This document shows positions 24,076 to 40,986 of a DNA stretch of 64,000 nucleotides, piece after piece. Made by a program: the position numbers and the translations under genes. How positions within the stretch are numbered: position 1 is the stretch's first letter; each line of letters begins with the position of its first letter. The stretch spans positions 64,001-128,000 of the forward strand of contig CAVRCF010000004.1 in NCBI GenBank assembly GCA_963719505.1. Direction: 5' to 3'. This DNA is from Halobacteriovoraceae bacterium (lineage in GTDB: Bacteria; Bdellovibrionota; Bacteriovoracia; Bacteriovoracales; Bacteriovoracaceae). The notes beneath the pieces are model-generated. The model saw only the letters and a list, made by a program, of their open reading frames with translations. It did not search any database and was not told the DNA's origin.

Positions 24076-24091
24076 GGTTTACATAGGGGTG
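24076..24091 (+). repeat. 16-bp target site duplication of IS copy 1 (left)
   Basis: GGTTTACATAGGGGTG, repeated at 25417-25432. Confidence 0.95.
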
Positions 24092-25416
24092 TATAGAAAC
24101 TAGACGATTATGTCCTATCCTTATTTCTCAGCGATTATGTCCTATTCAATAATATTTATGTACCCTGATTCCAATCAGTTATTAGGGGAATTGAATGGGA
24201 AAAGTCACTATGTCACAAAAAGAATTGAAGCAGTATCGCCTGGCCATGGATGTTATTGAAGGTAAGTTAACTATAATTTCCTTCTCTGAACAGATTGGAA
24301 AATCGTATCGACAATCTCAGAGAATTATCAATAAAGTTAAGGCCAAGGGTTCGATTGGTGTCTTACATGGAAACATTAATCGAACTCCTCACAATAAAAC
24401 TCCATTCGAAGTTGAAGAAAAAATAGTCTCTCTTCTAAAAAATCAATATCGAAACTTTAATCTAACTCATTTTCGAGAAAAGATAGAAGAGTATGAGGAA
24501 ATTAAAATCAAAAAAGATGCACTTCACTCAATTGCTAGGAAACATTGCCTTGTAAAACATCCTAAACGAAGAGGAAGACGGTGCCATAAACCAAGAGCAA
24601 GACTTCCAAAAGAAGGGATGATGATTCAGTTTGATGGAAGTGATCATACTTGGTTCGGTGATGAAAGAACTGATTTGATTGGAGGAATTGATGATGCTAC
24701 CGGGATTGTTGTTGGTGCTGAATTTTTCTATGGAGAGACGTCAAATAACTCTCTGAAGGTGATTAGGGAGATCGTTGATAACTATGGATTGCCAGAAAGT
24801 TTCTATATGGACCAAGCAGGTATTTATGGTAAGAAAGAGCGCGAGTGGGAATCACAAATTTCGAGAGCATTTGATCAAACAGGAATTCAATTAATCTTAG
24901 CAGGTTCTTCTCAAGCAAAGGGAAGAATAGAGAGACTCTGGAGAACATTCCAAGACAGACTGGTAGCGGAGTTAGAATTTAATCACATAACAAATATTGA
25001 AGAAGCCAATTATTACTTAAAAGAGATTTTTATTCCTGCATACAATTTTCAATTCTCAGTCAAAGCCGAAGAAGAAGAAGAAAAAGCCTGGAGAAAAAAT
25101 GTTTTTGGAGACCTAGATATTATATTTTGTAAAAAGATTAGGCGAAAAATTATGGTTGGAAATGTATTTAGTTGGGAGAATGTGACTTGGGTGTTGGATG
25201 AAAAAAGGTGTTTCTATGGACGAGAAATCAATATAAATATTCACCTTGATGGAAGCTACAGCTTCGATGTGATGGGCAGAAAAGTTCAATGTAAAGTTAG
25301 TAATAGGAAAAGATTAAGTGACTATGGTGATAAGTCGAAACACAGAAAAAGCGCTTAAAGTCTGATAGGACATAATCGCTCAGAAATTAACCGGACATAA
25401 TTGCCCAGAAACAACA
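24092..25416 (+). mobile_element. IS1202-family (ISNCY) insertion sequence, copy 1, 1325 bp
   Basis: Ends TAT.../...ACA defined by comparison with copy 2; two ATTATGTCC-core subterminal repeats at each end in inverted orientation; 16-bp TSD. Confidence 0.93.
24195..25358 (+). CDS. DDE transposase (IS1202/ISNCY family)
   Basis: N-terminal HTH, QFDGS.H.W, IDDATG, YMDQAG, AKGRIERLWRTFQDRL. Confidence 0.95.
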   Translation: MGKVTMSQKELKQYRLAMDVIEGKLTIISFSEQIGKSYRQSQRIINKVKAKGSIGVLHGNINRTPHNKTPFEVEEKIVSLLKNQYRNFNLTHFREKIEEYEEIKIKKDALHSIARKHCLVKHPKRRGRRCHKPRARLPKEGMMIQFDGSDHTWFGDERTDLIGGIDDATGIVVGAEFFYGETSNNSLKVIREIVDNYGLPESFYMDQAGIYGKKEREWESQISRAFDQTGIQLILAGSSQAKGRIERLWRTFQDRLVAELEFNHITNIEEANYYLKEIFIPAYNFQFSVKAEEEEEKAWRKNVFGDLDIIFCKKIRRKIMVGNVFSWENVTWVLDEKRCFYGREININIHLDGSYSFDVMGRKVQCKVSNRKRLSDYGDKSKHRKSA

Positions 25417-25432
25417 GGTTTACATAGGGGTG
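25417..25432 (+). repeat. 16-bp target site duplication of IS copy 1 (right)
   Basis: Identical to 24076-24091. Confidence 0.95.
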
Positions 25433-25433
25433 T

Positions 25434-26444
25434 TTAAATTTTAGACAGCTTTGCGATACCCTCTAAGTCTTTGTATTGTTTTGATGTTTTAAAAAATCTT
25501 AGTGAATGATTATAAATCTCTTCCTCTGAAAAATTTAGTATTTTTCGGTAAGAATACTCTTTTCTTAAAAGCTTAATAAACTCGAAAGATACTTTTGGTA
25601 TGATTGTGCAGTCAAAGTTTTTGACATTATGACGAGCGTGAAAGTCTCTTTCACATGCGTAATTAGTCATTGCCGGTAGATCAAAGACTTGAATATTAAA
25701 AGTTTCTAACTCTTCTTTCATTTTTTCATGAATTTTAATTATCGCCGGGTTTTGATTGTAGAGAGTTTTCTTGTTTACAAGCTTTGCGATATTGAATTCT
25801 CCAAGGCCTGAAATTAAAAGAAGTCTCGAAAAACTAATCTTTCCTTCAATACTTTCCACGGTAATATTGGGGTTTGATAGATAGTCAAAATGAGTAAATT
25901 TATGAATGAGAATGTTTTGCATCTGTTCAGGGGCCAGGGTGATAGTGTCGCTATTGATAAGCATAAGGTTTTTAGCTTTTCCTTGTGAATCAGATGTGAG
26001 CATTGAGCCACTTGAACGTCTCGGACCTAAGGGCATGACATAAATTGAGCCATAAATGATTGAATCAGGATATTCTCTAATATATCTTTCTCTTGCTTTA
26101 TCAACTTCGCTCTCTATAAGGCTTGAGTTCTGAATGATCCTTTGACCGTGGATTTCGTAGAGCTCAAAGGCTGCCCAGAGATCTATTTTTTTACTAAGGG
26201 CGCCAGCTGGGTCAGTCCAAATCAACTTTGAATAAAGCGGCGCAAATTTCCCTTCCACGATTTCGTCCCAAAGTTCTAGTCTCTGGTAAAGGGGCTTTGA
26301 CTTAGCTTTATTCCAAAAAGCCTCAAAGCGAGCGGAGATATCAACGTAGTCAATATTATTTGTTTGAGTTACTTTGACCGGTGTGGAGCTACAGCCCCAG
26401 ACGGATATTCCTATAAAAAGAAATAGAATGAATGTGTTTGACAT
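25434..26444 (-). CDS. Lipoprotein, degenerate Zn-metalloprotease-like (DUF2268-like)
   Basis: SD GGAG before ATG 26444; lipobox VWGC; HKFTH in place of HExxH. Confidence 0.6.
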   Translation of the reverse strand: MSNTFILFLFIGISVWGCSSTPVKVTQTNNIDYVDISARFEAFWNKAKSKPLYQRLELWDEIVEGKFAPLYSKLIWTDPAGALSKKIDLWAAFELYEIHGQRIIQNSSLIESEVDKARERYIREYPDSIIYGSIYVMPLGPRRSSGSMLTSDSQGKAKNLMLINSDTITLAPEQMQNILIHKFTHFDYLSNPNITVESIEGKISFSRLLLISGLGEFNIAKLVNKKTLYNQNPAIIKIHEKMKEELETFNIQVFDLPAMTNYACERDFHARHNVKNFDCTIIPKVSFEFIKLLRKEYSYRKILNFSEEEIYNHSLRFFKTSKQYKDLEGIAKLSKI

Positions 26445-26472
26445 GCCAAACTCCGATTTGTATGCTGAAGCG

Positions 26473-27774
26473 ATGAACAATTCACTTAATCACATCATCT
26501 TGGTGGCGTCTATTATTTTGGCGCAAGTTTCTTATGCGGCACAAGGAAGTCTTGTGGATCAGAAACTTCAAAAATACATAAAAACTTTTGTTATCTCATC
26601 TCCTAAAACAGTTCCTGGTCGTGGCTCTAAAAAATTTGAATTTGGCAAAATGCTTTTTGAAGACAATGATCTCTCAGTGTCAAAAAATATAAGTTGTCTG
26701 TCTTGTCATAATCCCACGTTGGGATCATCAGATGCTTTGCCTTTTTCTATCGGCTCAGGCGGTGTTCACAATGGTTTAAAAAGTAAGCAGCTCTTGGCAA
26801 AACTCACTTCTCGAAGTTCTCCGCATCTTTACAATAAAGGGCATGACTCTTTTAGAACTATGTTTTGGGACGGGAGAGTTTTTTATGATGATTTTGAAGA
26901 CGCATACGAGACACCTGAGCCTGGACTCAATGGAAAGGCTCCCGTGTACAATGATATTGTTGAAAAGATAGAAAATGTTTTGAGCATGCAAGCACTTTTT
27001 CCGATTGCTTCAAGTGTGGAGATGAGAGGAGAGAGCTTTAAAGGTCTTAGTAATAGAGAGGTTTGGAAAAAAATTTCTGATAGAATTGCCAATAAAAAAA
27101 TCTATAAACAGTACATCACTCACGATTTCAATATTGCCGATATTGCGAATGCATTGGCTTTTTATCAAAAAGTTGAGTTTCAGGTCAACGACACACCCTT
27201 TGACCAATATATTGCTGGAGATCTTCAGGTTCTTTCTGATAAAGAGAAAGAGGGAGCTGTCGTATTTTTCGAAAAAGGGAGATGTTCTCGTTGTCATCAC
27301 GGTGCTCTTTTATCTAATCAAGCCTTTCAAGGGGTGGGAGTTCCTCAAATTGGACCAGGGCATACTAAAGATAAAAATGATGAGGGGAGATATCTGATAA
27401 CGGGAAAAGAATTTCACAAGTATGGCTTTCTCACCCAGCCACTGAGAAATATAGCATTAACAGCTCCCTTCATGCACGATGGATCTTTAAAGGATTTAGA
27501 AGCAGTTGTCGTCCATTATAATAATCCTTCTCGATCGATAGATGATTATTCCGTTAGAGACTTGCAGACACTATATAGTGGGATTTTCAACGATTTTATC
27601 TACGTTGATAAAAACCCTTATAGAAATATCTACAGAAAGCAGGCTATAGCTCCTCCTATAAAAGCACCACTGGGGCTTAACTCAAGAGAAATAGATTCCT
27701 TAGTTTGCTTTTTAAAAAAATCATTAACCCAACAGAAGTATCATTTTCAAGTTAATTTTTCTCAGTGCCAATAA
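26473..27774 (+). CDS. Di-heme cytochrome c peroxidase / MauG family protein
   Basis: CLSCH, MFWDGR, CSRCH, LRNIALTAPFMHDGS; start re-assigned to ATG 26473. Confidence 0.92.
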   Translation: MNNSLNHIILVASIILAQVSYAAQGSLVDQKLQKYIKTFVISSPKTVPGRGSKKFEFGKMLFEDNDLSVSKNISCLSCHNPTLGSSDALPFSIGSGGVHNGLKSKQLLAKLTSRSSPHLYNKGHDSFRTMFWDGRVFYDDFEDAYETPEPGLNGKAPVYNDIVEKIENVLSMQALFPIASSVEMRGESFKGLSNREVWKKISDRIANKKIYKQYITHDFNIADIANALAFYQKVEFQVNDTPFDQYIAGDLQVLSDKEKEGAVVFFEKGRCSRCHHGALLSNQAFQGVGVPQIGPGHTKDKNDEGRYLITGKEFHKYGFLTQPLRNIALTAPFMHDGSLKDLEAVVVHYNNPSRSIDDYSVRDLQTLYSGIFNDFIYVDKNPYRNIYRKQAIAPPIKAPLGLNSREIDSLVCFLKKSLTQQKYHFQVNFSQCQ

Positions 27775-27782
27775 GTCTTTTC

Positions 27783-28025
27783 TTAGACCCAGCCTTGTTT
27801 CCAGGAGGATTCATTCTCTAGTTGCCTGTGGTTTATCTGATATGTTTTTCCTGTAAATATTGCTGTTAGGACGATGAAGTCGATGATCTGAGGATCGTTA
27901 TCATTAAGTTTGACTTCGGTAACGGTGAAATGCTTTTCTTTGTTTTTAGGTTCAGCTGCAGTCCACTTACTATTGAGTAGTTTCTTTTTATTAGGGTGAT
28001 TTTTATTTTTCATATCTTTTTCCAT
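27783..28025 (-). CDS. TIGR02450 family Trp-rich protein
   Basis: KLLNSKWTA..P.NKEKHF.V...W.QGW. Confidence 0.85.
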   Translation of the reverse strand: MEKDMKNKNHPNKKKLLNSKWTAAEPKNKEKHFTVTEVKLNDNDPQIIDFIVLTAIFTGKTYQINHRQLENESSWKQGWV

Positions 28026-28041
28026 GGACTAGTATTTTAGT

Positions 28042-29238
28042 ATGCATTCCACAGGACTTAAATCAAATATTCAAAAGATCTATGCCTTAAAGTTTTTTGG
28101 AATGTTTCTCGTTCTTATGCCAATTATAGTACCCTTTTTTCAGTCAAAGGGAATAGGCATGAAAGGCGTATACCTACTCCAGTCAATCTTTGCAATAACG
28201 GTTTTCATAATGGAGGTTCCCTCTGGTTATATTTCAGATCTTTTGGGAAGGAAGTCGACTCTTATTGTGGCAGGTTTTCTAAAAGCTGTTGGGTTCTCTT
28301 TATTTCCACTTGCGGATGATATCAATATTTTAATTTTTGCTGAAGTGATTCTTGGAATCGGAGCATCCTTGAGTTCTGGAACAGATATTGCCTTGATCTA
28401 TGATACGCTAGCGATAACGGCACCTAAAAAAGCTCACATAAAGATTTTGGGAAGGACCTTGTCTTACCTCTCTTTGGGTGAGGCTGTCGCGGCTTTTATT
28501 GCCTCGGTCCTGATGTTGTTGAGCGTGAATATGCAAAACTTGGCGATTGTATCTGCAGCAGTGAGCTGGATTCCTTTTTTTATAGCCTTTAGTTTATGTG
28601 AGCCTAAAAGAAAACTTATGAATTCAACTCATAGGGAAAATGCCACCTATATCTATCTAAAGCTTTTTAGAGAGTCTCAAGTGTTACGTCTCATTATTTT
28701 AAATTCAGTTCTCATCTCTTCCGGTACGCTTTTCGCCGTTTGGCTTTTTCAAAAATACTGGGAAAATATATCGATTCCGATTGTCTATTTTGGTTTTCTT
28801 TGGGCGATGACAAACTTGATTGTATCCGTCGTTAGCAAACGGGCCCATAAAATAGAGAAAAAATGGGGAAGTGCAAAGACTCTAGTCATCATTGGTATTC
28901 TTCCCATTATTGGATATTTCGGAATAGCATTGACCAACTCTGTCTTTGGTCTTGTTTTTTGTTTTTGTTTTCAGCTCACTCGAGGACTTGCACAAATAAT
29001 TTTAAAAGACGCCATCAATAGAAGAATTTCAGCCGATTTTCGAGCAACAGCAAATAGTGTTACTCAAATGGGTGTAAGAGTTCTCTTTGTCTTCTTTGGA
29101 CCACTCCTTGGCTTCATCATAGACCTGAAAGGATTAAGTTTCGCTTGTTTCATCATGGGATCTGCTTATATCGGTGTTTTTTGCTTTTCAACTCTTAGAC
29201 TTCTTTCTAAAAAATCAGAATTTATACCAATAAAATAA
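28042..29238 (+). CDS. MFS transporter
   Basis: EVPSGYISDLLGRK motif A; about 12 TM; RATANS. Confidence 0.9.
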   Translation: MHSTGLKSNIQKIYALKFFGMFLVLMPIIVPFFQSKGIGMKGVYLLQSIFAITVFIMEVPSGYISDLLGRKSTLIVAGFLKAVGFSLFPLADDINILIFAEVILGIGASLSSGTDIALIYDTLAITAPKKAHIKILGRTLSYLSLGEAVAAFIASVLMLLSVNMQNLAIVSAAVSWIPFFIAFSLCEPKRKLMNSTHRENATYIYLKLFRESQVLRLIILNSVLISSGTLFAVWLFQKYWENISIPIVYFGFLWAMTNLIVSVVSKRAHKIEKKWGSAKTLVIIGILPIIGYFGIALTNSVFGLVFCFCFQLTRGLAQIILKDAINRRISADFRATANSVTQMGVRVLFVFFGPLLGFIIDLKGLSFACFIMGSAYIGVFCFSTLRLLSKKSEFIPIK

Positions 29239-29239
29239 T

Positions 29240-30634
29240 TTACTTTAATTTCTCGTAGGCAGGCTGGATCTTTTCAAAATCAAAGCTCCAATTTGTAGTG
29301 GACTCAATTTCATTTTTAAATTGTCTCTTAGAGTGACCTAAAATAATAGCATCATAAAGAAAAGAAGCCTCTCTAATCATTTTCATTCTTAAACTTAAGA
29401 TGGGACTTCTAATTTTAAAATTTGGATAAAGAAGATTACCATCTCCGTTTCCTCCAAAGTTATAGGTATCTAGCAGAGGATTAACACCAAACCTGGAAAG
29501 TTTCCACTGCTCAATTGAGTTATAATAGAGCAGTCCAGTGATGGGGTACCGAAGAGATAAAAGATAAAACATGTAGATGTCCTGTGCGTCTGCTTCGATG
29601 GAGAGATCAGGAGTTCCTGTCTTGTCGTGAATCAGTCCTGGATTTGGATACTGCGGACTTGAAGTATACTCTCTCGATGGGCCACAGCCATGACTCATGC
29701 AACTGATGTACATCCACAACTCAGAACCCGCATCAATTATTTCCTTAGAACTTTGTTCATCTATATGTTCAGCGACGGGACAATAGATATCAATTTCAAG
29801 ATCAGAATTATAACTAGTCGTGACCATTGTAGATACACTGGGATGTCTTTTTTTAAGATCAGTGAGACTCTTTTTGAGGGCGACAAATTCATCACCAAAA
29901 GGCTCATCCCATACATAAAACCAAGGGTTTTTGAGAATGTTTTTACTTAGCAGCTTATCTATTTCGCCGTTGATTGGGATATTGGTTTGGGTTATTCCAT
30001 TTTTTGACACATATGTTTCAAATCGATCATGCCTTTTTTCATTATAGGGTTCAAGCCATGACTTAATAGGGCGAACTCTATGTTTAAGCGCTTCCCTATG
30101 GGCCTGTAAGGCAAGACTTTCGTCTTCTTTTTTATAAGTTCCACGGTTGAGACCGAGTGAATAGGCATAGGGCTCAATTGGAATAAACAGGTTGAGCTTT
30201 GGTTTAAGAGAGGACTTTTTTAGTTTATCAATGGAGATTTCAATATTTTCAAGTTTAAAGGACTCACTGGTTTCAAAAAAAGCGTAGTCAGTTCGTCCAC
30301 AGTTTTCTGCAGTCAGAGGCTTAAGGGCATCGTAGTAAATACCCGTAGCATAATCCCTTGCAGAGGGATGATCGATTTGAATTGGGAGTATGGCAAAGGC
30401 CAGTCCTTGGAGCTTACAAATTTCACCTGTAAAAATAAAGCCTGTCGTTTGATTTTTAAAAATAGTTCTTTTTAAAGTATCGACCCAATCATCTTTTTTT
30501 ATTTCGTGAGGCTTTTGAAGATAACGTGCAACTTTTAAAGGACCTCTTTTTATGAATGACTTTTTACTCGTTTGTTCTTTAGGGTTTTGGCAGGAAATGA
30601 AAATAAAAAGAAGGGCGAGGATTAGCTTTATCAT
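29240..30634 (-). CDS. Lipoprotein with DUF4091-like C-terminal domain
   Basis: Lipobox FISC; YVWDEP, GLLYY, NGDGNLLYP, SLRMKMIRE. Confidence 0.7.
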   Translation of the reverse strand: MIKLILALLFIFISCQNPKEQTSKKSFIKRGPLKVARYLQKPHEIKKDDWVDTLKRTIFKNQTTGFIFTGEICKLQGLAFAILPIQIDHPSARDYATGIYYDALKPLTAENCGRTDYAFFETSESFKLENIEISIDKLKKSSLKPKLNLFIPIEPYAYSLGLNRGTYKKEDESLALQAHREALKHRVRPIKSWLEPYNEKRHDRFETYVSKNGITQTNIPINGEIDKLLSKNILKNPWFYVWDEPFGDEFVALKKSLTDLKKRHPSVSTMVTTSYNSDLEIDIYCPVAEHIDEQSSKEIIDAGSELWMYISCMSHGCGPSREYTSSPQYPNPGLIHDKTGTPDLSIEADAQDIYMFYLLSLRYPITGLLYYNSIEQWKLSRFGVNPLLDTYNFGGNGDGNLLYPNFKIRSPILSLRMKMIREASFLYDAIILGHSKRQFKNEIESTTNWSFDFEKIQPAYEKLK

Positions 30635-30647
30635 AAGGAGTAGGGAT

Positions 30648-30673
30648 AAGCCCCCGATTAAATCGAGGGCTTT
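30648..30673 (-). terminator. Hairpin terminator after 30679-31095 gene
   Basis: AAGCCCCCGATT-aa-ATCGAGGGCTT imperfect stem. Confidence 0.55.
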
Positions 30674-30678
30674 ATATT

Positions 30679-31095
30679 TTATCTAAGTGTTGATCTACAG
30701 TTTGCAAAAGCTGATCTATGCGTATTGTTTTGTCTTACTCTCATTGTAAAGTTGTGGTTATCGTTTTCAAAAACTTGATTTGGAACTTCAAAAGTAATTC
30801 CTCTAATTCCTGAAAAATCTGTATTGATACATGTGCTATTTCCAGAACATCTTGCTCTATTGGTCCAAAGTCTATTGAAGACTTCGTAGCCTGGTCCAAA
30901 CATGTCTCTGATAACGAGAGTTGTTCCTGAAACATCTTCTTTTTCAACATTCATAAAATCTAGATCTGCTCTTCTGAAAACGACATTTCCAAAAGTACCC
31001 TCAACAACAAGCGGTCCACTAACACTACAGTTAATGTCTGCAGTTCCAGCAAAAACGGAAGTCGTAAGCATTAACGCTAAAATAAGCTTTTTCAT
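30679..31095 (-). CDS. Secreted hypothetical protein
   Basis: SD AAGGAG; signal peptide; 4 Cys. Confidence 0.75.
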   Translation of the reverse strand: MKKLILALMLTTSVFAGTADINCSVSGPLVVEGTFGNVVFRRADLDFMNVEKEDVSGTTLVIRDMFGPGYEVFNRLWTNRARCSGNSTCINTDFSGIRGITFEVPNQVFENDNHNFTMRVRQNNTHRSAFANCRSTLR

Positions 31096-31149
31096 AAAAT
31101 CTCCTTAAGGTTTTTTATCTTTTTTTCACACTCTGGCATTCAAGTCAAC

Positions 31150-31890
31150 TCAGTATGAGTTTGTTATATAGTATTCAAGTATTTGCACCAGCTCAATTTT
31201 CTTCTCTTTCAGGGTCTCTTTCTGGTCTTTATTCGTATTTGTGATCATTTGGCTTAGGAACTTAAAAAAACGCTCATTCAACTCATTGTTTTCATTGAGT
31301 GACTTGGTAAATAGAGCAAAAGCAGATTCAACCTGTTCGTAGGTCTTTGCTTTTTTCAGTGCCCTTTGAATTTTTAACCTTCTGTTTATTCTTTGTTTGG
31401 AAATATCTTTGAGAAGAGGCAGATTGCTTCTAATCAATTCTCGCTGACCATCATTGATATAGCCAAAAAAGCCATCGTATTTTTTGGCCACCGTTTTTAC
31501 TGTCATTTCATCAGCTTGTTCTTTAACGCTTTCGTTTTTCTCTTCTTGAAGCTTAAAAAACTCTTTCTTTTGTTCAACGGAAAGTTTGAAGTAGTATTTG
31601 GTAATAAGAGGCATCAATCTGTTGGTAATCTCTATGTATTGCTCTTTTAATCCTTCGATGGGGATGGGGCTATTGACATCCAGCTTGGAGATTTTCTTCT
31701 TGAGCAGCTTAGCTGTCTCTTTGTTTTGGTTGAGAAACTTTTTTACATCGACTCTCAGTTCGTCTTCTTGTTGGTCATTTAAGTTTAGTTCTCCGGCAAT
31801 TTTACTAGTCATAAGGTAGTCTAGCTTTGAGACGATGAGGCTTTTAAAAGAGCACGATGCTGATAGTAAGAGTATAAGGATTAATTTCAT
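31150..31890 (-). CDS. Lipoprotein (DUF6279-like helical protein)
   Basis: Lipobox SASC; LN.QQ and LS.EQ helical repeats. Confidence 0.6.
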   Translation of the reverse strand: MKLILILLLSASCSFKSLIVSKLDYLMTSKIAGELNLNDQQEDELRVDVKKFLNQNKETAKLLKKKISKLDVNSPIPIEGLKEQYIEITNRLMPLITKYYFKLSVEQKKEFFKLQEEKNESVKEQADEMTVKTVAKKYDGFFGYINDGQRELIRSNLPLLKDISKQRINRRLKIQRALKKAKTYEQVESAFALFTKSLNENNELNERFFKFLSQMITNTNKDQKETLKEKKIELVQILEYYITNSY

Positions 31891-32016
31891 AACTTTATCC
31901 TATCCAATAATGAACAAAATGTTGTGTAGATTAGTTCAAATTTGATTTTGGTGTACAGCGATATATCTATGGGTTAAGATGGAGGTTAATTTTTTTTTGG
32001 TCACTAAGGATTTGTT

Positions 32017-32853: not shown

Positions 32854-32946
32854 AAATCTCTTTCCTGACTTTTTGACTCTGCTATTGCCCCCTTATTTTG
32901 TCTTACATTGACTAGAAAGATCGATTTCTTTGATCTAGCATTAGCT

Positions 32947-33615
32947 ATGAAAATTTTTATCCTACTTCTGTTGTGTTCTTTTAGTTCAGCCCTTTACGCT
33001 AATACCTGTTGTATTTGTCAAACGGGCGCCAAACCTGAAAATCAAACCCATTGGTTTAAAAAAGGTTGTCATGCTTGGTTATCTAAACAAAAGTCTTGCA
33101 CCAGTAAGAAGATTGTCGGCATTGAAAAAGATTCGATTATTGAAAGTGCGGCCAGCTGTGAAGATGGAAAAGTTAAACTTGGTTATGTTGGCCACTGGGG
33201 AAACTCTAATGAGTTGATTAATTTTATCGAAAACTCCTTGGCCCCCACCATTAAGTATTACAATGTCGAAGTTGATTACGATCAAACGGCTTGTACCTCT
33301 ATGAATAAGCCTCGTGTTATTGAGAGATTCTTCAAGACACTCAACTTGAATCGAAAACTGACAATTAAAGGCAATCAAGTTACAAGCACAGGTATCTGGG
33401 ACGATTATCTTCCACATAAAACAAATTTTTGGGCAAAGATTGATAGCGAAGAAAAAAAGATTGAGTTTCCAAGTTGCTCAGAATTTGAAAATAAGACCTG
33501 TTTTGGAAAATATCAAAAAAATGAATTCGGTAAATGTGTTGAAAGTGGCTCAATCGTAAAGCTATTTTGCGAAAAGGTTAGCTTTACAACTTATAAGTGG
33601 AAAAGAGATGAATAA
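32947..33615 (+). CDS. Secreted cysteine-rich hypothetical protein
   Basis: Signal peptide from ATG 32947; CCIC and further Cys; stop overlaps next start. Confidence 0.7.
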   Translation: MKIFILLLLCSFSSALYANTCCICQTGAKPENQTHWFKKGCHAWLSKQKSCTSKKIVGIEKDSIIESAASCEDGKVKLGYVGHWGNSNELINFIENSLAPTIKYYNVEVDYDQTACTSMNKPRVIERFFKTLNLNRKLTIKGNQVTSTGIWDDYLPHKTNFWAKIDSEEKKIEFPSCSEFENKTCFGKYQKNEFGKCVESGSIVKLFCEKVSFTTYKWKRDE

Positions 33616-35011
33616 ATTAATTGTCGGGTTACTTTTATTAAATATGAGTTTTGCCTCAGACCGTCTTCAGCGCTCTGAAACTGCGAAAACAGAACTTGAA
33701 AATTTAAATTTCTTTACCAAGGGTAGAGGGATGGTGATATCTCCTGATTTAATCAACATGTATGAAATTCTAAAAAAGACTGGCATAGGCTTAAGCACTA
33801 ATGGAATTTTAAATAAGCGTTGGGGATTGAATTTATTAGATAAAGAAGTAAAAGGACTTTTTAATATACCTTATAAAAATATGAATATGGGCGTTCTGGG
33901 ATGTGTGGCCTGTCACTCTGGAAGAGCAGCTGGTCAATGGATTATAGGTTTAGGTAACAAAAATATTGATGTTGGGCAGGTTGGTAAAGATGCCTATTTG
34001 GCCGAACTTATTTGGGGAATGGCACCAAGGCCTTCTAAACCAGAGTTTAGAGAAATTCACAACAGAGCACTGGCCTTCACGAAAATTTTAAAAAATGATA
34101 ATATTAATAATCTCACTCAAGGGCTTGTTCCAACCTCTTTGGTGAAAACTTGGTTTTATGAAATAAATGATGTTGAGATACCAAAACGATTTGGTAGGGG
34201 ACAAGTAAAAGTTCCCCATCTTTGGGGCTATGGAGAAAAAAGAAAAAGTGGCTCCTTTTGGGATGGTTTTGCCGATGGAGTCTATCCGGGCTGGGCCGTT
34301 GCCGTTGAGCTTAGAGGTGGTCAGTCTGTTGAAAACGTTAGAGGCTACGTAGATAAAGTTCATCATGCTGAAGATCTATTAGGCGACCTTCTTCCTCCTC
34401 GCTATCCCTTTGAGATCGATCAAGCTAGTGCCGCGAGAGGTTCAAAGACTTTTAATAAGTTTTGCATAAAATGTCACGGTGAACACGTAAGGGATGAGAA
34501 CGATCTACCTATTTTCAAAGAGTCAAAAGTGATTCCATGGAAGTATGTAAAAACTGATTATGAGAGGCTTGAATTTGTGACTGATGAGTTCTTGAGTTTA
34601 ATTGATAGCTCGCCCCTAAATGATCTTATGAAGTATAAAGACCGTGAAGGGAAAGGCTATGTCGCTCCAAGGCTTTGGGGTGTGTGGTCAAGGTTTCCCT
34701 ATCTCCACAATGGTTCAGTGCCTACTGTAAGAGACCTTTTAAGTTTACCAAAAGATAGACCAATTGTTTTCAATTTGCATAGAGCTGGAGAGTTGGATCG
34801 TTACGACCGTGAAAAATTTGGATTAATAGTTAATAGAGATCCCAATTCAAAGTCCTATAAAAAAATGCTTCGCGCGGCGAAACGAGGAAAGAGAAGTCTT
34901 TATTTTACTGAGAGAATGGGCCATGGCAATCAAGGTCATGCTTTTGAATTTTATAAAGAGTTAACGGAAGGTGATAAAGATGATCTGATAGAGCATCTCA
35001 AAACCTTATGA
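33608..35011 (+). CDS. Secreted di-heme c-type cytochrome, RoxA-like
   Basis: CVACH, CIKCH, GYVAPRLWGVW..PYLHNGSVPT, GNQGH.F, LIEHLKTL. Confidence 0.8.
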   Translation: MNKLIVGLLLLNMSFASDRLQRSETAKTELENLNFFTKGRGMVISPDLINMYEILKKTGIGLSTNGILNKRWGLNLLDKEVKGLFNIPYKNMNMGVLGCVACHSGRAAGQWIIGLGNKNIDVGQVGKDAYLAELIWGMAPRPSKPEFREIHNRALAFTKILKNDNINNLTQGLVPTSLVKTWFYEINDVEIPKRFGRGQVKVPHLWGYGEKRKSGSFWDGFADGVYPGWAVAVELRGGQSVENVRGYVDKVHHAEDLLGDLLPPRYPFEIDQASAARGSKTFNKFCIKCHGEHVRDENDLPIFKESKVIPWKYVKTDYERLEFVTDEFLSLIDSSPLNDLMKYKDREGKGYVAPRLWGVWSRFPYLHNGSVPTVRDLLSLPKDRPIVFNLHRAGELDRYDREKFGLIVNRDPNSKSYKKMLRAAKRGKRSLYFTERMGHGNQGHAFEFYKELTEGDKDDLIEHLKTL

Positions 35012-36096
35012 CCCAAAAACACTACCTTCATAAACTGGATTCTCTCAGAGGTATTGCGGCCTTTATGGTCGTTATTCTTCACTTCCAAGACTATCTCGCT
35101 CCGATTATAAATGAACTTCTGCTCAAAGTGACTCCCTTTATACATAGATCCTACATCTTAGTTGATATGTTTTTCATTCTCTCCGGGTTTGTCATGAGCT
35201 ATACGTATCATGAAAAATTCAAAGACGGTGTTAACCTTTCTAAATATAAAAAATTTATGCTTAAAAGGTTTTTCAAGTTATACCCTCTTCACATCGCAAC
35301 ATTTTTGTTTCTTGTTATTTTCCATCGTTTCTTTTTACCATTTTTTGATATCCCACCAAGTGATTTTGTTTTAAATCGAAACAATTTTCATATTTTGACA
35401 AATCTTACACTTTTGCAATCATCTGGTATTGGGTGGGGGGATTGTTTTAATTGTTCAAGCTGGAACTATCCTTCGTGGTCCATTTCTGTTGAGTGGATTA
35501 GCTATTTCTTCATTCCCTTATTGATGTGGATTTTTCGCCGAAATAAATTTTTAAGTTTTGGTCTGGTCTCCGTTTTGTATCTAGCTTTTTATTTTCTTGT
35601 CGAAGTTCCCATCGGAAATACAGATGTCCTAACACTAAGAGGTATTGTCAGATGTTTAATTGGTATGGCTTTTGGTATAAGTATTTTTTACCACGCTTAT
35701 AAAAAGTTCGAAGTAAAGAATGCTTTATTCTATCTCTCATTTTTTGTAGCCTTTCTCTCTTTGCACTTTGTTCCCATTGATACAATTTGTATTGTTTTGA
35801 TGGGTATAATGCTGATGCTAACTTCCAATCTTAAAGAAAGTAATTTTTTGGATTCTAAAGTCCTTCTATGGCTTGGTAAGAGATCTTTTTCCATCTATAT
35901 GGTTCATGTCTTAGTTCAAGACTCAGTCGACTTTGCCATTAGATTTGTCTTTGATAGAAGTCTTTATGACGCCAGCGCATGGCTGCAAATAATTGTTTTT
36001 TTAGGGGCCATTTGCCTCGTCTTTCTAGTCGCCGAGATAAGTTATAAACTGATAGAAAAACGACTTAATTCGTTCTTAAGAAGTAAGTTTTTGTAA
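35008..36096 (+). CDS. Acyltransferase-3 (OafA-like) membrane O-acyltransferase
   Basis: LDSLRGIAA..V...H, VDMFFILSGFV, R..KLYP, SWSISVE, GKRSFSIYMVH, SYKLIE. Confidence 0.92.
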   Translation: MTQKHYLHKLDSLRGIAAFMVVILHFQDYLAPIINELLLKVTPFIHRSYILVDMFFILSGFVMSYTYHEKFKDGVNLSKYKKFMLKRFFKLYPLHIATFLFLVIFHRFFLPFFDIPPSDFVLNRNNFHILTNLTLLQSSGIGWGDCFNCSSWNYPSWSISVEWISYFFIPLLMWIFRRNKFLSFGLVSVLYLAFYFLVEVPIGNTDVLTLRGIVRCLIGMAFGISIFYHAYKKFEVKNALFYLSFFVAFLSLHFVPIDTICIVLMGIMLMLTSNLKESNFLDSKVLLWLGKRSFSIYMVHVLVQDSVDFAIRFVFDRSLYDASAWLQIIVFLGAICLVFLVAEISYKLIEKRLNSFLRSKFL

Positions 36097-36201
36097 AAAA
36101 ATTTAGACATCTTTGTTTCTTTACATTTTTTGAGTCTTTGGTCATTATTTATTTATGCTCGAAAAATGAGCAGACAAATTTTTATGAACAAGGAACAGAT
36201 T

Positions 36202-36396
36202 ATGAGTACAGGTACAGTAAAATTTTTTAATGAAACGAAAGGTTTTGGTTTCATCACACAAGACGACAATGGAGAGGACCTTTTTGTTCACATCTCAGCA
36301 ATTGAAAGCGGAGAACTTCGTGAGAATGATAAGGTTGAGTACGAAGTTGGAGAGGGAAGGAAAGGTCCTTGTGCTGTAAATGTAAAAAAGCTTTAA
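36202..36396 (+). CDS. Cold-shock protein (CspA family)
   Basis: [28 protein letters not shown] before ATG 36202. Confidence 0.97.
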
Positions 36397-36414
36397 ATAT
36401 TTTTTATATTGGAG

Positions 36415-36440
36415 AAGGAAGCTAGTAGGCTTCCTTTTTT
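36415..36440 (+). terminator. Rho-independent terminator of the csp gene
   Basis: AAGGAAGC-tagtag-GCTTCCTT followed by T run. Confidence 0.75.
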
Positions 36441-37108
36441 ATTTCGATCTCTTCAAGCTCTTCACTAATTTTATATTCCCATTTTTTATATGCAGGTAAT
36501 CTTTTTCTAAAAAATGGATAAACCATAAGTCCCGTAAAAACACCTATAAAAAATCCGATATAGTGAGCTAAATAGCTTGTCGTGGGTGAGTAGCTAGTAG
36601 GAACAAGTAAAATAAAAAAAATGGCCAAAACTTTTACCAGTCTTCTTGCAAAGCTAATAGTCTCATCAATAAATAGGTAGAGAACAAACCAAAAACCCCA
36701 AAGATAGTAGATGACGCCAGATATGCCAACAAGTGTTGTGTTGTCTTTAAAAGTATAGAGGACGCAAAGGTTAATAAACGCACCCATGACAAGACTTAAA
36801 GGAATTGAGACAAAATATCCATAAAAAGATGAAACAAAATATGTGAGAAATAAAAGCATGAGACTATTACTCAGAAGGTGTTCAATATCACCATGAGCGA
36901 AGAGGGTTGTAAAAAGTCTCCAATACTCCTTCGCCTTAAAAATATTTTCTGGATTGGCGCCAATCAATTTTGATAATTGAAAATCATCATTCCAATAGAA
37001 GAGACTTGTAATAATACAGGCCGAAAGAAAGAAAGCTGAAACAACCAGACCGAAGTTATACTTTTTTTTACTGAGATATGTGTCAACAAGTTTTGATTCA
37101 ATTATCAT
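36422..37108 (-). CDS. Rhomboid family intramembrane serine protease
   Basis: WRL, H.D.EHLLSN, GISG, AHY.G. Confidence 0.92.
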   Translation of the reverse strand: MIIESKLVDTYLSKKKYNFGLVVSAFFLSACIITSLFYWNDDFQLSKLIGANPENIFKAKEYWRLFTTLFAHGDIEHLLSNSLMLLFLTYFVSSFYGYFVSIPLSLVMGAFINLCVLYTFKDNTTLVGISGVIYYLWGFWFVLYLFIDETISFARRLVKVLAIFFILLVPTSYSPTTSYLAHYIGFFIGVFTGLMVYPFFRKRLPAYKKWEYKISEELEEIEIKKEAY

Positions 37109-37366
37109 GTTAAGAATATGAGGTTGAAAAGATTTTTGTCAACCTTCAGCCCCTTTGCCAATATATCATTTTAGAGACATTGAATTCACAGATAAACGTT
37201 CGATAGGGACAAAGAAAACAAAACCCTTATGATCTTTTATCCTTATATTTCAAGTATTTGAGGGAGTCTCAAAGGACTTAAATTTCTCTGAGAGAGTCTA
37301 TGTAAATTATTTATAGAGGTTTGATTTTGGGTGGTCAGTTGATTTTGGTTGTGCTACGTTGCGCAA

Positions 37367-37858
37367 ATGAAAACTATAGATACAAAAACTCCAAAAAAGA
37401 AGAATCCTGCACCTATTGATCCAGGGGCCCATAACTTTGGCCGCCTAAGTCGTGAGGATAGGTTTACCACTGTTTATATTGGCAATATGTCTTATGAAAA
37501 AGATGAGTTTGAGATTAAAAAGCTTTTTTCAACCTACGGAAAAGTAACTTATGTAAGGCTTGTTAAAGATCAAAAAACCAGTAGAAGTAAAGGGTTTGCT
37601 TTTGTTCAAATGCCTACTGAAAAGGATGCTCTCTATGCTATCGAGAGGCTAAATGGATCGAAGATGGATGGCAGAACTTTAAAAGTTTCTGTAGCCGTTG
37701 AGAACGATACGATTATTAAAACAAGAAATGGTGAACCTACAAGTGGCCCTATCAAAAGAGTTAAAGGTGAAGATGCTCCTGAGGTTGAAGCACCAAGAAA
37801 CAGAAGAAGAGATAAGAAAAAAGGCCTTGACCTTTTATTCGAAAATACTAGATCTTAA
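37367..37858 (+). CDS. RRM (RNP-1) RNA-binding protein
   Basis: VYIGNM (RNP2), KGFAFVQM (RNP1), GRTLKV; start re-assigned to ATG 37367. Confidence 0.92.
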   Translation: MKTIDTKTPKKKNPAPIDPGAHNFGRLSREDRFTTVYIGNMSYEKDEFEIKKLFSTYGKVTYVRLVKDQKTSRSKGFAFVQMPTEKDALYAIERLNGSKMDGRTLKVSVAVENDTIIKTRNGEPTSGPIKRVKGEDAPEVEAPRNRRRDKKKGLDLLFENTRS

Positions 37859-38849
37859 TTGCAAGTCCAAAAACTGGAATAGTAAATAGCCTCTCATTGA
37901 GGCTATTTTTTTTGATTTCTTTCTTTAAAAAGGTTTTTGGATCATTGTAACCCTCGTCGGTAAGTTTAAAAGTTCCAAAATGAATTCCTATCATCGTCTT
38001 TGTTTCCAGATCTTTGAAAGCTTCAATAGCATCAGCAGGATTCATATGGGCAGCTTTCATAAACCATCTTGGCTCGTAGGCGCCAATAGGTAAAAGAGAG
38101 ACATCTGGCGCCCCTAATTTTTCTTTGATCATTTTAAAAAATGATCCATAGCCCGTGTCTCCAGCGAAATAAATTGATCTTGATCCTTTTAGATAAAATC
38201 CTCCCCAAAGCATTTCTCTTCTATCGAAGAGTCCTCTGGCAGACCAGTGCTGAGCCGGAACAAAAGTAATTTTTAGATTTCCTTGTGAGACCTCTTGCCA
38301 CCAGTCTAAGTCTTGAGCTTTTTCGATTCCTTGTTCAGCTAAAAAATCTTTGGTTTCTAGCCCGGCTAAAATCTTTGGTTTATGCTTTTTTGCGATGATC
38401 CTTAAACTATCAAGGTCGAGATGATCATAGTGGTTGTGAGAAATAAGGACGATATCTATTAGTGGAAGGTCATCTATTGCAATTCCAGGTTTTACGACTC
38501 TCTTTGGTCCAATAAAGCTAAAAGGGGAGGCCCTTTGTGAAAAATGAGGATCAGTAAGAATATTGATATTATCGATCTGGATGAGAGCGGTTGCATGATT
38601 GATTACGGTGATCACAAGCTCATTAGATCTTTCAAAAAGTGGCTTATATTGTTTTGACTCTACTTGATCTGGCCACGGGACTGAGTTTTCTATCCCTCGA
38701 ATTTTCCACTCCAAAAGTTTAAAAAGACTTTTATCGGCAAAAGGCTCAATATTTTGGAATTGGTCTCCAATTCTTTTAGCCCCTTGATTTGCGCTCCAGG
38801 CAAGTGAGTTCACGTAAATAAGGGAAATTATTAGTAAAAGTATATTCAT
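37848..38849 (-). CDS. MBL-fold metallohydrolase (NAPE-PLD/RomA-like), secreted
   Basis: ILTDP, SHNHYDHLD, PAQHWS, FAGDTG, PIGAYEP, IHFGTF. Confidence 0.92.
   Translation of the reverse strand: MNILLLIISLIYVNSLAWSANQGAKRIGDQFQNIEPFADKSLFKLLEWKIRGIENSVPWPDQVESKQYKPLFERSNELVITVINHATALIQIDNINILTDPHFSQRASPFSFIGPKRVVKPGIAIDDLPLIDIVLISHNHYDHLDLDSLRIIAKKHKPKILAGLETKDFLAEQGIEKAQDLDWWQEVSQGNLKITFVPAQHWSARGLFDRREMLWGGFYLKGSRSIYFAGDTGYGSFFKMIKEKLGAPDVSLLPIGAYEPRWFMKAAHMNPADAIEAFKDLETKTMIGIHFGTFKLTDEGYNDPKTFLKKEIKKNSLNERLFTIPVFGLAIKI
37884..37913 (+). terminator. Rho-independent terminator of the RRM gene
   Basis: AAATAGCCTC-tcatt-GAGGCTATTT plus T run. Confidence 0.7.
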
Positions 38850-38890
38850 CAGTAGTCCTTTTTAGAGTATAATATGCCCTTGGAGGCACT

Positions 38891-39442
38891 ATGAAAAAGG
38901 TATTTCTTTTCATCATTCTATTATCAAATGCTTATTCAGCCCAGATTGAATGGCCTAAAAACAATGCTGTCGCGTATATCGCGCAAAAGACCATGTTTTT
39001 TTTCAAAGATGTTACCGTCATAGGTATAAATTCAAATATAGCCTTTAGTAAAGCCACTTTAAATGAAGGAATCATTTTGACAATGAGTATTCCAATCGCT
39101 GACTTTAAAAGCGGCGATGAGGATAGAGATGAGGAAGTGAGAGAGATTTTAAAGGTCAAAAAGAGTAAGTTCTTAATTTTTCGCTCAGTCAAAATGAGTA
39201 AAAAAGATTATCAACAAATGCTTGAAGGCGATCCCTTTTATGTCGATGGACTATTGGCGATTGGAGACAAGAATTTTCAAGTTAAATTTAGAAGTCTAAG
39301 AGAAGATCAACATATGTTATTTGACTTTGAAACGACATTTAGTAACTTTGATATAGAACCTCCAAGTGTGGCTTTTGGAGCAGTTGCTAAAGCCAAAGAT
39401 TACCTTGTACTGAAAGCAAAAATTAATATCAATGACTTCTAA
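38891..39442 (+). CDS. YceI-like secreted protein
   Basis: FKSGDEDRD, G.L.IG, F.IEPP motifs; TATAAT and SD GGAGG upstream. Confidence 0.75.
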   Translation: MKKVFLFIILLSNAYSAQIEWPKNNAVAYIAQKTMFFFKDVTVIGINSNIAFSKATLNEGIILTMSIPIADFKSGDEDRDEEVREILKVKKSKFLIFRSVKMSKKDYQQMLEGDPFYVDGLLAIGDKNFQVKFRSLREDQHMLFDFETTFSNFDIEPPSVAFGAVAKAKDYLVLKAKININDF

Positions 39443-39451
39443 AGGATGCAT

Positions 39452-39628
39452 ATGTTTGGCTTATTTAAAAAGAACCCGTTGAAAGACCTAGAAAAGCAAT
39501 ATGCGAAAAAGCTTGAGGAAGCTATGAACGCCCAAAGAAATGGTAAAATGGACGTCTATGCCAAGCTTTCCACAGAAGCGGAAGAAATTGGAAAGAAAAT
39601 GGATGAGCTAAAACTGTCTAAAAATTAG
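39452..39628 (+). CDS. DUF6435 (Lacal_2735-like) small protein
   Basis: MFGLFKK.P...L.KQY..KLEEAM.AQRNG....YA. Confidence 0.75.
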   Translation: MFGLFKKNPLKDLEKQYAKKLEEAMNAQRNGKMDVYAKLSTEAEEIGKKMDELKLSKN

Positions 39629-39629
39629 A

Positions 39630-39645
39630 CGTATCCCTGTAAAAT
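39630..39645 (+). repeat. 16-bp target site duplication of IS copy 2 (left)
   Basis: CGTATCCCTGTAAAAT, repeated at 40971-40986. Confidence 0.95.
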
Positions 39646-40970
39646 TGTTGTTTCTGGGCAATTATGTCCGGTTAATTTCTGAGCGATTATGTCCTATCAG
39701 ACTTTAAGCGCTTTTTCTGTGTTTCGACTTATCACCATAGTCACTTAATCTTTTCCTATTACTAACTTTACATTGAACTTTTCTGCCCATCACATCGAAG
39801 CTGTAGCTTCCATCAAGGTGAATATTTATATTGATTTCTCGTCCATAGAAACACCTTTTTTCATCCAACACCCAAGTCACATTCTCCCAACTAAATACAT
39901 TTCCAACCATAATTTTTCGCCTAATCTTTTTACAAAATATAATATCTAGGTCTCCAAAAACATTTTTTCTCCAGGCTTTTTCTTCTTCTTCTTCGGCTTT
40001 GACTGAGAATTGAAAATTGTATGCAGGAATAAAAATCTCTTTTAAGTAATAATTGGCTTCTTCAATATTTGTTATGTGATTAAATTCTAACTCCGCTACC
40101 AGTCTGTCTTGGAATGTTCTCCAGAGTCTCTCTATTCTTCCCTTTGCTTGAGAAGAACCTGCTAAGATTAATTGAATTCCTGTTTGATCAAATGCTCTCG
40201 AAATTTGTGATTCCCACTCGCGCTCTTTCTTACCATAAATACCTGCTTGGTCCATATAGAAACTTTCTGGCAATCCATAGTTATCAACGATCTCCCTAAT
40301 CACCTTCAGAGAGTTATTTGACGTCTCTCCATAGAAAAATTCAGCACCAACAACAATCCCGGTAGCATCATCAATTCCTCCAATCAAATCAGTTCTTTCA
40401 TCACCGAACCAAGTATGATCACTTCCATCAAACTGAATCATCATCCCTTCTTTTGGAAGTCTTGCTCTTGGTTTATGGCACCGTCTTCCTCTTCGTTTAG
40501 GATGTTTTACAAGACCATGTTTCCTAGCAATTGAGTGAAGTGCATCTTTTTTGATTTTAATTTCCTCATACTCTTCTATCTTTTCTCGAAAATGAGTTAG
40601 ATTAAAGTTTCGATATTGATTTTTTAGAAGAGAGACTATTTTTTCTTCAACTTCGAATGGAGTTTTATTGTGAGGAGTTCGATTAATGTTTCCATGTAAG
40701 ACACCAATCGAACCCTTGGCCTTAACTTTATTGATAATTCTCTGAGATTGTCGATACGATTTTCCAATCTGTTCAGAGAAGGAAATTATAGTTAACTTAC
40801 CTTCAATAACATCCATGGCCAGGCGATACTGCTTCAATTCTTTTTGTGACATAGTGACTTTTCCCATTCAATTCCCCTAATAACTGATTGGAATCAGGGT
40901 ACATAAATATTATTGAATAGGACATAATCGCTGAGAAATAAGGATAGGACATAATCGTCTAGTTTCTATA
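39646..40970 (-). mobile_element. IS1202-family (ISNCY) insertion sequence, copy 2, 1325 bp
   Basis: Reverse complement of copy 1, same length and ends, own 16-bp TSD. Confidence 0.93.
39704..40867 (-). CDS. DDE transposase (IS1202/ISNCY family)
   Basis: 387 aa, identical to copy 1 except KHGL versus KHCL. Confidence 0.95.
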   Translation of the reverse strand: MGKVTMSQKELKQYRLAMDVIEGKLTIISFSEQIGKSYRQSQRIINKVKAKGSIGVLHGNINRTPHNKTPFEVEEKIVSLLKNQYRNFNLTHFREKIEEYEEIKIKKDALHSIARKHGLVKHPKRRGRRCHKPRARLPKEGMMIQFDGSDHTWFGDERTDLIGGIDDATGIVVGAEFFYGETSNNSLKVIREIVDNYGLPESFYMDQAGIYGKKEREWESQISRAFDQTGIQLILAGSSQAKGRIERLWRTFQDRLVAELEFNHITNIEEANYYLKEIFIPAYNFQFSVKAEEEEEKAWRKNVFGDLDIIFCKKIRRKIMVGNVFSWENVTWVLDEKRCFYGREININIHLDGSYSFDVMGRKVQCKVSNRKRLSDYGDKSKHRKSA

Positions 40971-40986
40971 CGTATCCCTGTAAAAT
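40971..40986 (+). repeat. 16-bp target site duplication of IS copy 2 (right)
   Basis: Identical to 39630-39645. Confidence 0.95.

Follow-up and report, generated by a model that had tools for sequence, protein, structure and literature searches.

The window considered here is a stretch of 64,000 nucleotides from a Halobacteriovoraceae bacterium (contig CAVRCF010000004.1 of assembly GCA_963719505.1, positions 64,001 to 128,000), and it holds two inverted copies, 99.8% identical, of a 1325-bp insertion sequence (IS) designated IS-A; each copy is bounded by a 16-bp target-site duplication and has, at one end, a palindrome that belongs to the host. The genome that holds the window, G000, consists of five contigs (3.69 Mb, 83.5% complete). 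The elements, their duplications and the adjoining palindromes are arranged as follows, IRL and IRR being the left and right inverted repeats and ORF an open reading frame:

24076 to 24091, plus strand: left copy of the target-site duplication of IS-A copy 1, 16 bp, last bases TG, equal to 25417-25432
24092 to 25416, plus strand: IS-A copy 1, 1325 bp; left tip (IRL) TATAGAAACTAGAC, right end (IRR) terminating ...AACAACA
24195 to 25358, plus strand: transposase gene of copy 1, 387 aa, its ATG 103 bp from the left tip
25417 to 25432, plus strand: right copy of the duplication of copy 1, a perfect match to the left copy
25431 to 25448, no strand assigned: host palindrome at copy 1, TGTTTAAATTTTAGACAG, overlapping the stop codon of ORF 25434-26480 (minus strand)
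39614 to 39631, no strand assigned: host palindrome at copy 2, CTGTCTAAAAATTAGACG, overlapping the stop codon of ORF 39446-39628 (plus strand)
39630 to 39645, plus strand: IRR-side duplication of copy 2, 16 bp, perfectly equal to 40971-40986
39646 to 40970, minus strand: IS-A copy 2, 1325 bp, with its transposase gene at 39704-40867 on the minus strand
40971 to 40986, plus strand: IRL-side duplication of copy 2, a perfect match to the IRR-side duplication

IS-A encodes one protein only, the 387-aa transposase, which matches NCBIfam NF033594 (ISNCY_2), presumably the model of the IS1202 group, at E 2.7e-93 with 313 bits against a cut-off of 250. The IS1202 family is described as having a DDE transposase in which a conserved DD pair stands between the first D and the second and the E is followed, at seven residues, by a Q (bioRxiv 10.1101/2022.12.17.520857), and the IS-A transposase carries this DD-plus-Q signature; D147, D166-D167, D206, E246 and Q253 are invariant in an alignment of four members of its clade. 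The family ends are described as 5'-TGT...ACA-3' with a second, inner copy of that part of the inverted repeat which binds the transposase; the right end of IS-A closes in ACA and a ATTATGTCC repeat is doubled at each end. The two ends of IS-A are nevertheless unlike each other, as the left end begins TAT (TCT in some relatives) and the right tip, read inwards, is TGTTGTTTCTGGGC, the type found at both ends of more distant relatives; a Ta/gT start is described only for the left end of the IS1202 subgroup (bioRxiv 10.1101/2022.12.17.520857). In size (about 1.3 kb, with a transposase of about 390 aa), 15-17 bp duplications and doubled repeats IS-A fits the ISTde1-type subgroup, ISTde1 being known here by description only; unlike that subgroup as described, the IS-A clade targets a specific site and has a left end that reads TAT or TCT instead of TGT and differs from the right end. 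The only promoter-like match inside the IS-A left end (24125-24153, 9/12) is no better than in shuffled sequence. Among public sequencing runs only two, both metagenomes, had small shares, and these covered IS-internal pieces only, with no flank and no joint covered.

Both palindromes of the window lie directly beyond the IRR-side duplication, and their outer TG (CA on the other strand) forms its last two bases; after this TG the sequence continues as TTTAAATTTTAGAC at copy 1 and TCTAATTTTTAGAC at copy 2. An earlier sequence-only reading of the window had reported the two copies, the 16-bp duplications and the adjoining palindrome over stop codons, all of which were found in the flanks as described, and had proposed a site-selective IS that inserts at fixed register and orientation. 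This proposal holds well beyond the window. IS-A is present in G000 in eight copies (99.8-100% identical) and its sister IS-B, 72% identical, in five; the right ends of both sit 15-17 bp from TGTCTAAAnTTTAGACA. Among the flanks first read, from G000 and six other genomes, 21 of 23 carry the motif at the right end, at an offset of 16 bp in 16, 15 bp in three and 17 bp in two. The motif lies 15-17 bp from the end in 11 of the 13 G000 right-end flanks; next to the right end of IS-A copy A5 are 31 bp from the left end of an IS-B, inverted and with the tip in the same register, and the right-end flank of copy A6 contains no motif. Duplications of 15, 16 or 17 bp border 11 of the 13 G000 copies and are lacking at A5 (C1:698290-699614) and A6 (C1:1060370-1061694), both of which were probably rearranged after insertion. 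All ten right-end flanks from the six other genomes bear the motif (two from G095, one from G379 and seven genome-collection loci from five assemblies). The duplications differ from site to site and hence represent separate insertion events.

The logo over the 21 motif-bearing flanks reads T G | T C T A A A n T T T A G A C A (G/C), each defined column carrying 1-2 bits and both palindrome halves being conserved equally; a TGTAAA box that the sequence-only reading had placed inside the duplication is not part of the target, its columns reaching at most 0.5 bit over the 21 sites. A weight matrix was built only from the 10 sites of other genomes, with p values that allow for three offsets; it recovers 12 of the 13 G000 right-end flanks at p < 6e-4 and 10 at p < 3e-5 (the copy 1 palindrome scores 21.4, p = 2e-6, and that of copy 2 20.8), while none of the 13 left-end flanks scores, the best reaching -2.6. 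The exact pattern GTCTAA-N3-TTAGAC occurs at four G000 sites, three of which abut IS-A or IS-B; 180 palindromes with permuted half-sites have a mean count of 0.38 per pattern in the same genome. Twenty-nine G000 loci score at least 17.5, and of these nine bear IS-A or IS-B, one bears IS-C (an unrelated element described below) and 19 are free. A 17-bp palindrome with a 1-3 nt centre and 29 high-scoring loci is not dif-like, in agreement with the sequence-only reading.

Independent flanks were drawn from metagenomes with the matrix fixed before the loci were fetched. Eighty loci were obtained, with a right-end flank of at least 34 nt readable in 41, of which three were duplicates within the set and two repeated earlier loci; three automatic end calls were corrected by eye, and the relatives are mostly from metagenome bins. 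The targeting class was defined by at least 56% identity to IS-A, with the exception of L169, which was placed by its L080-like right tip and is thus a partly circular assignment. Among 23 independent flanks of targeting type, 19 score at least 10 (p <= 4e-5 per position), three score between 4 and 10, and one (L133) has no site, so that 22 of 23 carry the motif, 19 strongly and three weakly. By comparison, 0 of 13 right-end flanks of relatives with symmetric tips reach a score of 4, and nine symmetric-tip relatives have no common box on either side. The check proposed at the outset, that other copies should have the motif before the duplication at the same register, finds it in most copies with the orientation fixed. 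The homing of IS-A beside the palindrome is confirmed as real and lies far beyond chance. Comparison of the flanks shows, at the level of sequence, that insertion of IS-A, of IS-B and of the elements related to them is site-specific, next to a palindrome of the host whose consensus is TG|TCTAAAnTTTAGACA(S). Of the two staggered cuts, one is made at the palindrome edge, TG|T, and the second at a distance of 15-17 bp; since the left end must be joined at TG|T and the right end 16 bp off, the orientation is fixed. In the finished element IRR is nearest the palindrome with the duplication between them, and IRL faces the next gene.

The targeting elements group together in a tree of 42 transposases, which holds only the relatives fetched in this analysis: a nine-row clade has 100/97 support, and a 12-row clade (90/85) adds L080, L083 and L008, the site of L008 being weak; sister elements have symmetric TGT tips and are without the motif. 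The record titles of the relatives name Halobacteriovoraceae and Bacteriovoracaceae. On this tree the targeting elements are shown as one clade, IS1202-family and ISTde1-like, of the Bdellovibrionota; their hosts are marine predatory bacteria. Their left tip resembles their target. When applied to the tips of IS-A the target matrix gives p = 5e-5 for the left and p = 0.1 for the right; across the clade, left tips range from p = 8e-6 to 3e-3, against p > 0.1 for the symmetric-tip relatives. Other left tips of the clade include TCTAGTTTCTAGAC and TATAAACTTTAGAC, and the common pattern T(A/C)TA(G/A)...(T/C)(T/A)(A/G)GAC resembles the palindrome in the same register. Because the duplication is repeated on both sides of the element, the left tip occupies the exact former place of the palindrome relative to the downstream gene. 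Transposase length is alike in targeting and non-targeting elements (380-387 aa), with no extra domain in the former.

Two unusual arrangements of ends were seen among the relatives. At L005 (G058, 1383-2766) the right end is followed directly by a 31-bp inverted left-end-like terminus, and the composite is flanked by a 15-bp repeat that is itself left-tip-like; this may be a three-ended or captured-end element. In the metagenome contigs L153 and L178, both with symmetric-tip elements, 16 bp separate a right end from the left end of a further copy in head-to-tail order; a circle junction or a tandem dimer could account for this arrangement, which would fit a copy-out-paste-in process with a 16-bp spacer.

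The palindrome belongs to the host, as the sequence-only reading had supposed. IS-A copies are 99.8-100% identical yet their adjoining motifs differ, so the motif is not carried by the IS. The exact pattern TGTCTA-N5-TAGACA is present in 88 of 101 genomes of the family, with about 313 motif sites against about 29 for a reversed control pattern over those genomes (table summed by hand); in G000 the figures are 7 and 2. Two genomes with no transposase match, G022 and G147, contain 15 and 9 sites. Across the phylum the motif is frequent in families f1 (61/67), f4 (19/20), f6 (30/34), f14 (25/34) and f23 (6/6) and rare in f3 (1/9), f7 (0/9) and f11 (0/14). When 30 motif loci from 30 genomes were read, a gene start faced the motif within 250 bp in 28; the motif was inside an ORF of at least 80 aa in only two and lay between gene ends on both sides in none. 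Motif sites stand 40-140 bp upstream of start codons, and their dyad symmetry often runs past 17 bp. The usual G000 layout is the end of gene 1, 5-34 bp, the motif, 50-110 bp and the start of gene 2, and in most copies the IS has gone into the interval that separates the motif from gene 2, whereas in B5 it is on the other side; at 7 of 13 G000 copies the IS is faced, at 5-34 bp, by the end of the nearest motif-side ORF. The genes on the other side of the two window copies are:

22536 to 24017, minus strand: PLD-family gene (PLDc_2, 4.4e-28), its start 74 bp from copy 1 and facing the left end
41058 to 42095, plus strand: gene downstream of copy 2, its start 87 bp from copy 2 and facing the left end

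Before the insertion of copy 1 the palindrome stood about 74 bp upstream of the PLD gene. In G152, which represents another genus, a homologue of this gene (37% identity, E 3e-103) has the motif 69 bp upstream and no IS, and this locus is considered the nearest thing to an empty site; it also adds to the case for host origin made by the family-wide enrichment and the transposase-free genomes. When 41 relatives were searched at the DNA level for the left flank of copy 2, the only match was a 77%-identical piece in G003, where the orthologue of the small ORF has a different end and at most a half-motif downstream. At both window sites the final codons of the upstream gene overlap with the host element. 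The KLSKx* tails shared by the two unrelated ORFs, to which the sequence-only reading had drawn attention, are there (25434-25451 and 39611-39628), and are encoded by the extended motif AAAsTGTCTAAAnTT(TAG/TAA); they are a by-product of it, as two of its three frames meet TAA or TAG inside the motif. The position at gene ends, claimed in the same place, stands in so far as the palindrome overlaps the stop codons at both sites, but a better description places the site 50-110 bp before the start of the following gene, the apparent gene-end position being due to the short spacers of tandem genes.

Several identities for the motif were tried and rejected. As an intrinsic terminator it would need a T-run, and none follows the motif in the direction of the upstream gene; as a -35 box it has no -10 at a fixed distance, and there are no promoter matches in the flanks. 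A repetitive extragenic palindrome system with its associated transposase (REP/RAYT) was set aside, as PF01797 was not found in G000 (83.5% complete) and the strong sites number about 29, not more than 100. At L044 (G410, 1501-2302), from another genus, an ORF for a DUF772 transposase begins 84 bp from a palindrome site and may represent a third IS family near the motif.

IS-C is a 1750-bp element with 8-bp duplications, present in nine full copies in G000 (at C1:1015656-1017405, L100, and eight more) and in none in the window. Its transposase matches Pfam PF03050 (DDE_Tnp_IS66) at 3.5e-26 and the NCBIfam IS66 model with 162.8 bits, below the cut-off of 180; its ends are GTAACTGC, and the inverted repeats begin GTAA. 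GTAA ends and an 8-bp duplication are typical of the IS66 family. In six of the nine copies a motif-like site begins 7-8 nt from one end, directly past the 8-bp duplication, and a seventh copy abuts a 16-nt palindrome of similar kind. Two of the six sites are themselves the left tips of IS-A copy A8 (C2:393977-397059, L101) and IS-B copy B4 (C2:178699-181766), where IS-C lies inside the left end, in opposite orientations, and its target is the 8-bp ATTATGTC directly after the motif-like tip. These insertions explain the apparently replaced left tips of A8 and B4; once its true tips are put back, the 16-bp duplication of A8 is perfect. Relatives of IS-C from other genera (41-66% identity) use the same edge in four of nine loci read, namely two copies in G314, one in G433 and, weakly, one in G215. 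No similarity between the transposases of IS-C and IS-A is detectable (best E 0.38), nor is any common DNA-binding domain. In G314 two IS66 copies, L187 and L195, have swapped 8-bp duplications, the footprint of an inversion between them.

The favoured explanation, to which a probability of roughly 0.45 is given, is that a host protein bound to the palindrome acts as a beacon. It is hypothesized that a conserved DNA-binding protein of the host binds at the palindrome, and that this protein, when bound at its chromosomal site, would serve as a landing beacon; as the sites are found 40-140 bp ahead of start codons, it is probably a transcription factor. The same protein on the motif-like left tip, or a distortion at the edge of the site, would draw the left end to the palindrome edge; the left end would join there and the right end 16 bp further on, and the unrelated IS66-family IS-C would use the same beacon. 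The host beacon is favoured because two unrelated transposases use one edge, mimic tips included, because targeting and non-targeting transposases have the same architecture, and because the motif behaves like a conserved operator; moreover, since the right tip functions although it is motif-free, the motif of the left tip must have a role other than catalysis. Two further ideas are speculative, namely that the downstream gene keeps an operator-like sequence in register after insertion, and that the transposase gene, 103 bp from the tip, may be under the same regulator. That the left tip is a working copy of the host regulator's operator, with the regulator a general landing pad for transposons of these predatory bacteria, is a more doubtful proposition than the beacon itself; if it were true, an insertion would supply a replacement operator in exact register and so have a low cost, the element's transposase would be placed under a host regulator, and an unrelated IS66 lineage would exploit the same protein.

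Several points weigh against the host beacon. The palindrome-binding protein is putative. The genes that neighbour the motif have no common family, as a Pfam scan of 50 proteins and a clustering of 63 gave three pairs only; an autoregulatory site of IHF or HU was considered and rejected, since L047 has an HU-family gene beside the motif but none of the three HU/IHF genes of G000 does. The association of IS-C with the edge (6-7 of 9) is not absolute, and IS-C may have a separate specificity. The geometry fits direct recognition by the transposase equally well, with the join at the same G|T as real left-end cleavage; in L153 and L178 the right end lies 16 bp from a real left end, so that end recognition by the transposase alone could suffice. 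Finally, the whole case is built from sequence, with relatives mostly from metagenome bins and with the best-fitting offset (15-17) chosen.

Direct recognition, in which the transposase reads the palindrome as a left end, is the nearest rival and is judged somewhat unlikely. A protomer on the palindrome would pair with the element ends; the right end would attack 16 bp outside the pseudo-end, in a geometry like that of right-to-left joining in a circle junction, and the left end would join the tip of the pseudo-end, much like the end-targeted insertion of IS30 and IS911. Left tip and target do have one consensus in one register, and the TG|T cut is at the left-end cleavage position. In A5 and in the G058 element the right end stands exactly 16 bp from the inverted left tip of another element, and the symmetric-tip L153 and L178 show the order right end, 16 bp, left end. 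The element encodes a single protein, and the specificity of the dif-hunting subgroup of the family is placed "probably" in the transposase by the authors who described it (PMC10132070). The model is weakened by the right tip, which is processed although it is motif-free, so that tip sequence is not needed for catalysis, and by the lack of any extra domain relative to the non-targeting sisters; it also leaves unexplained why an IS66 transposase should land at the same edge, left tips included. The sequence-only reading had allowed for both direct and host-mediated recognition.

Promoter targeting is an improbable explanation, under which -35-like TTGACA boxes about 16 bp away are recognised and the palindrome is two back-to-back -35 boxes. 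The motif halves do read TAGACA or TTGACA and the sites are promoter-proximal; in sites with unlike halves, the TTGACA-type half is, by eye, distal in about 10 and proximal in one (L080), which may hint at a link to promoters. Both halves are, however, conserved equally at about 1-2 bits per column, the distance from the right end to the distal box is 24 bp instead of 16 bp, and the proximal box is directed towards the IS. No TAnnnT starts 17-19 nt past the motif in 34 oriented rows, a simple promoter scan gave no match between left ends and downstream genes, the motif-side ORF faces the IS with its end (5-34 bp) at 7 of 13 G000 copies, and the nine symmetric-tip relatives lack a common box on either side.

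Recognition of DNA structure only, whereby the AT-rich palindrome extrudes a cruciform or hairpin whose base is attacked by DDE transposases, is slightly less probable still; two unrelated elements do cut at the palindrome edge and the dyad symmetry often extends beyond 17 bp, yet the targets have a common sequence and not merely symmetry, imperfect half-sites and weakly symmetric left tips are hit too, and palindromes permuted at the same composition are rare in G000 (mean 0.38), as is the reversed pattern (2 sites, where the motif has 7). Random insertion with later selection, in which only copies in harmless intergenic spots by the motif survive, is hardly credible, for although the sites are intergenic and most copies lie on the motif side away from the upstream gene, selection cannot set register within 1 bp and orientation across over 40 independent sites, and it leaves unexplained that left tips of other elements are insertion sites too.

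Insertion next to a marked site is known from several systems. IS30, and IS911 without OrfA, insert beside sequences like their own ends at a spacing equal to the duplication; these elements belong to other families and have 2-4 bp spacings, whereas the end-like sequence beside IS-A is a conserved host motif used by an unrelated IS as well. In Tn7 (TnsD/attTn7), the Tn5053 "res hunters" and the IS1 hot spot (IHF), a DNA-bound host or plasmid protein sets the insertion point, and in IS1 the IHF binds both element ends and the hot spot. IS-A differs from these systems in having no accessory transposition genes and in that its partner protein is hypothetical. The IS that target REP sequences (Tobes and Pareja 2006, PMC1525189) are similar in that several IS species within a genome home to one short extragenic palindrome, but have hundreds of sites against about 30 per genome here; no RAYT was found in G000, and the motif of IS-A is conserved across several families of the phylum.

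A close comparison is with ISAjo2 and ISAba32, the "dif-site hunters" of the same family (PMC10132070, bioRxiv 10.1101/2022.12.17.520857). These also have a single transposase, a subterminal second transposase-binding repeat and one orientation, at a duplication-length distance from a palindrome that binds host proteins. Their target is a XerC/XerD site with two 11-bp arms and a 6-bp spacer, their duplications are 5-6 bp, and 5 bp separate the elements from the XerC arm of the dif or pdif site; IS-A, with a 16-bp duplication and a target that is not a XerC/XerD site, falls outside this group. The target of IS-A numbers about 30 per genome and is promoter-proximal, and its left tip mimics the target, in contrast to the dif hunters. 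Only the subgroup with 5-bp duplications is said to target xrs (Siguier et al., bioRxiv 10.1101/2022.12.17.520857), and the long-duplication IS1202 groups are described as without a specific target (PMC10132070); in the accessible parts of the literature no report of a target for the ISTde1-type group was found, and supplementary tables could list sites. The IS1202 family is thus known for one targeted branch, the dif hunters, and the long-duplication clade described here, near-absolute for another host site, is a second and different one. New here are a single targeting clade, left-tip mimicry in register and an unrelated IS66 element at the same edge. The system makes it testable whether single-gene IS pick their sites alone or via host proteins, offers a compact one-protein tool for site-directed insertion, and draws attention to an uncharacterised cis-element conserved in several families of the Bdellovibrionota.

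The two copies in the window have their right ends inward, 14.2 kb apart (24092-40970); each copy has its own duplication, so the pair is not a composite transposon, and as inverted copies they are a substrate for inversion.

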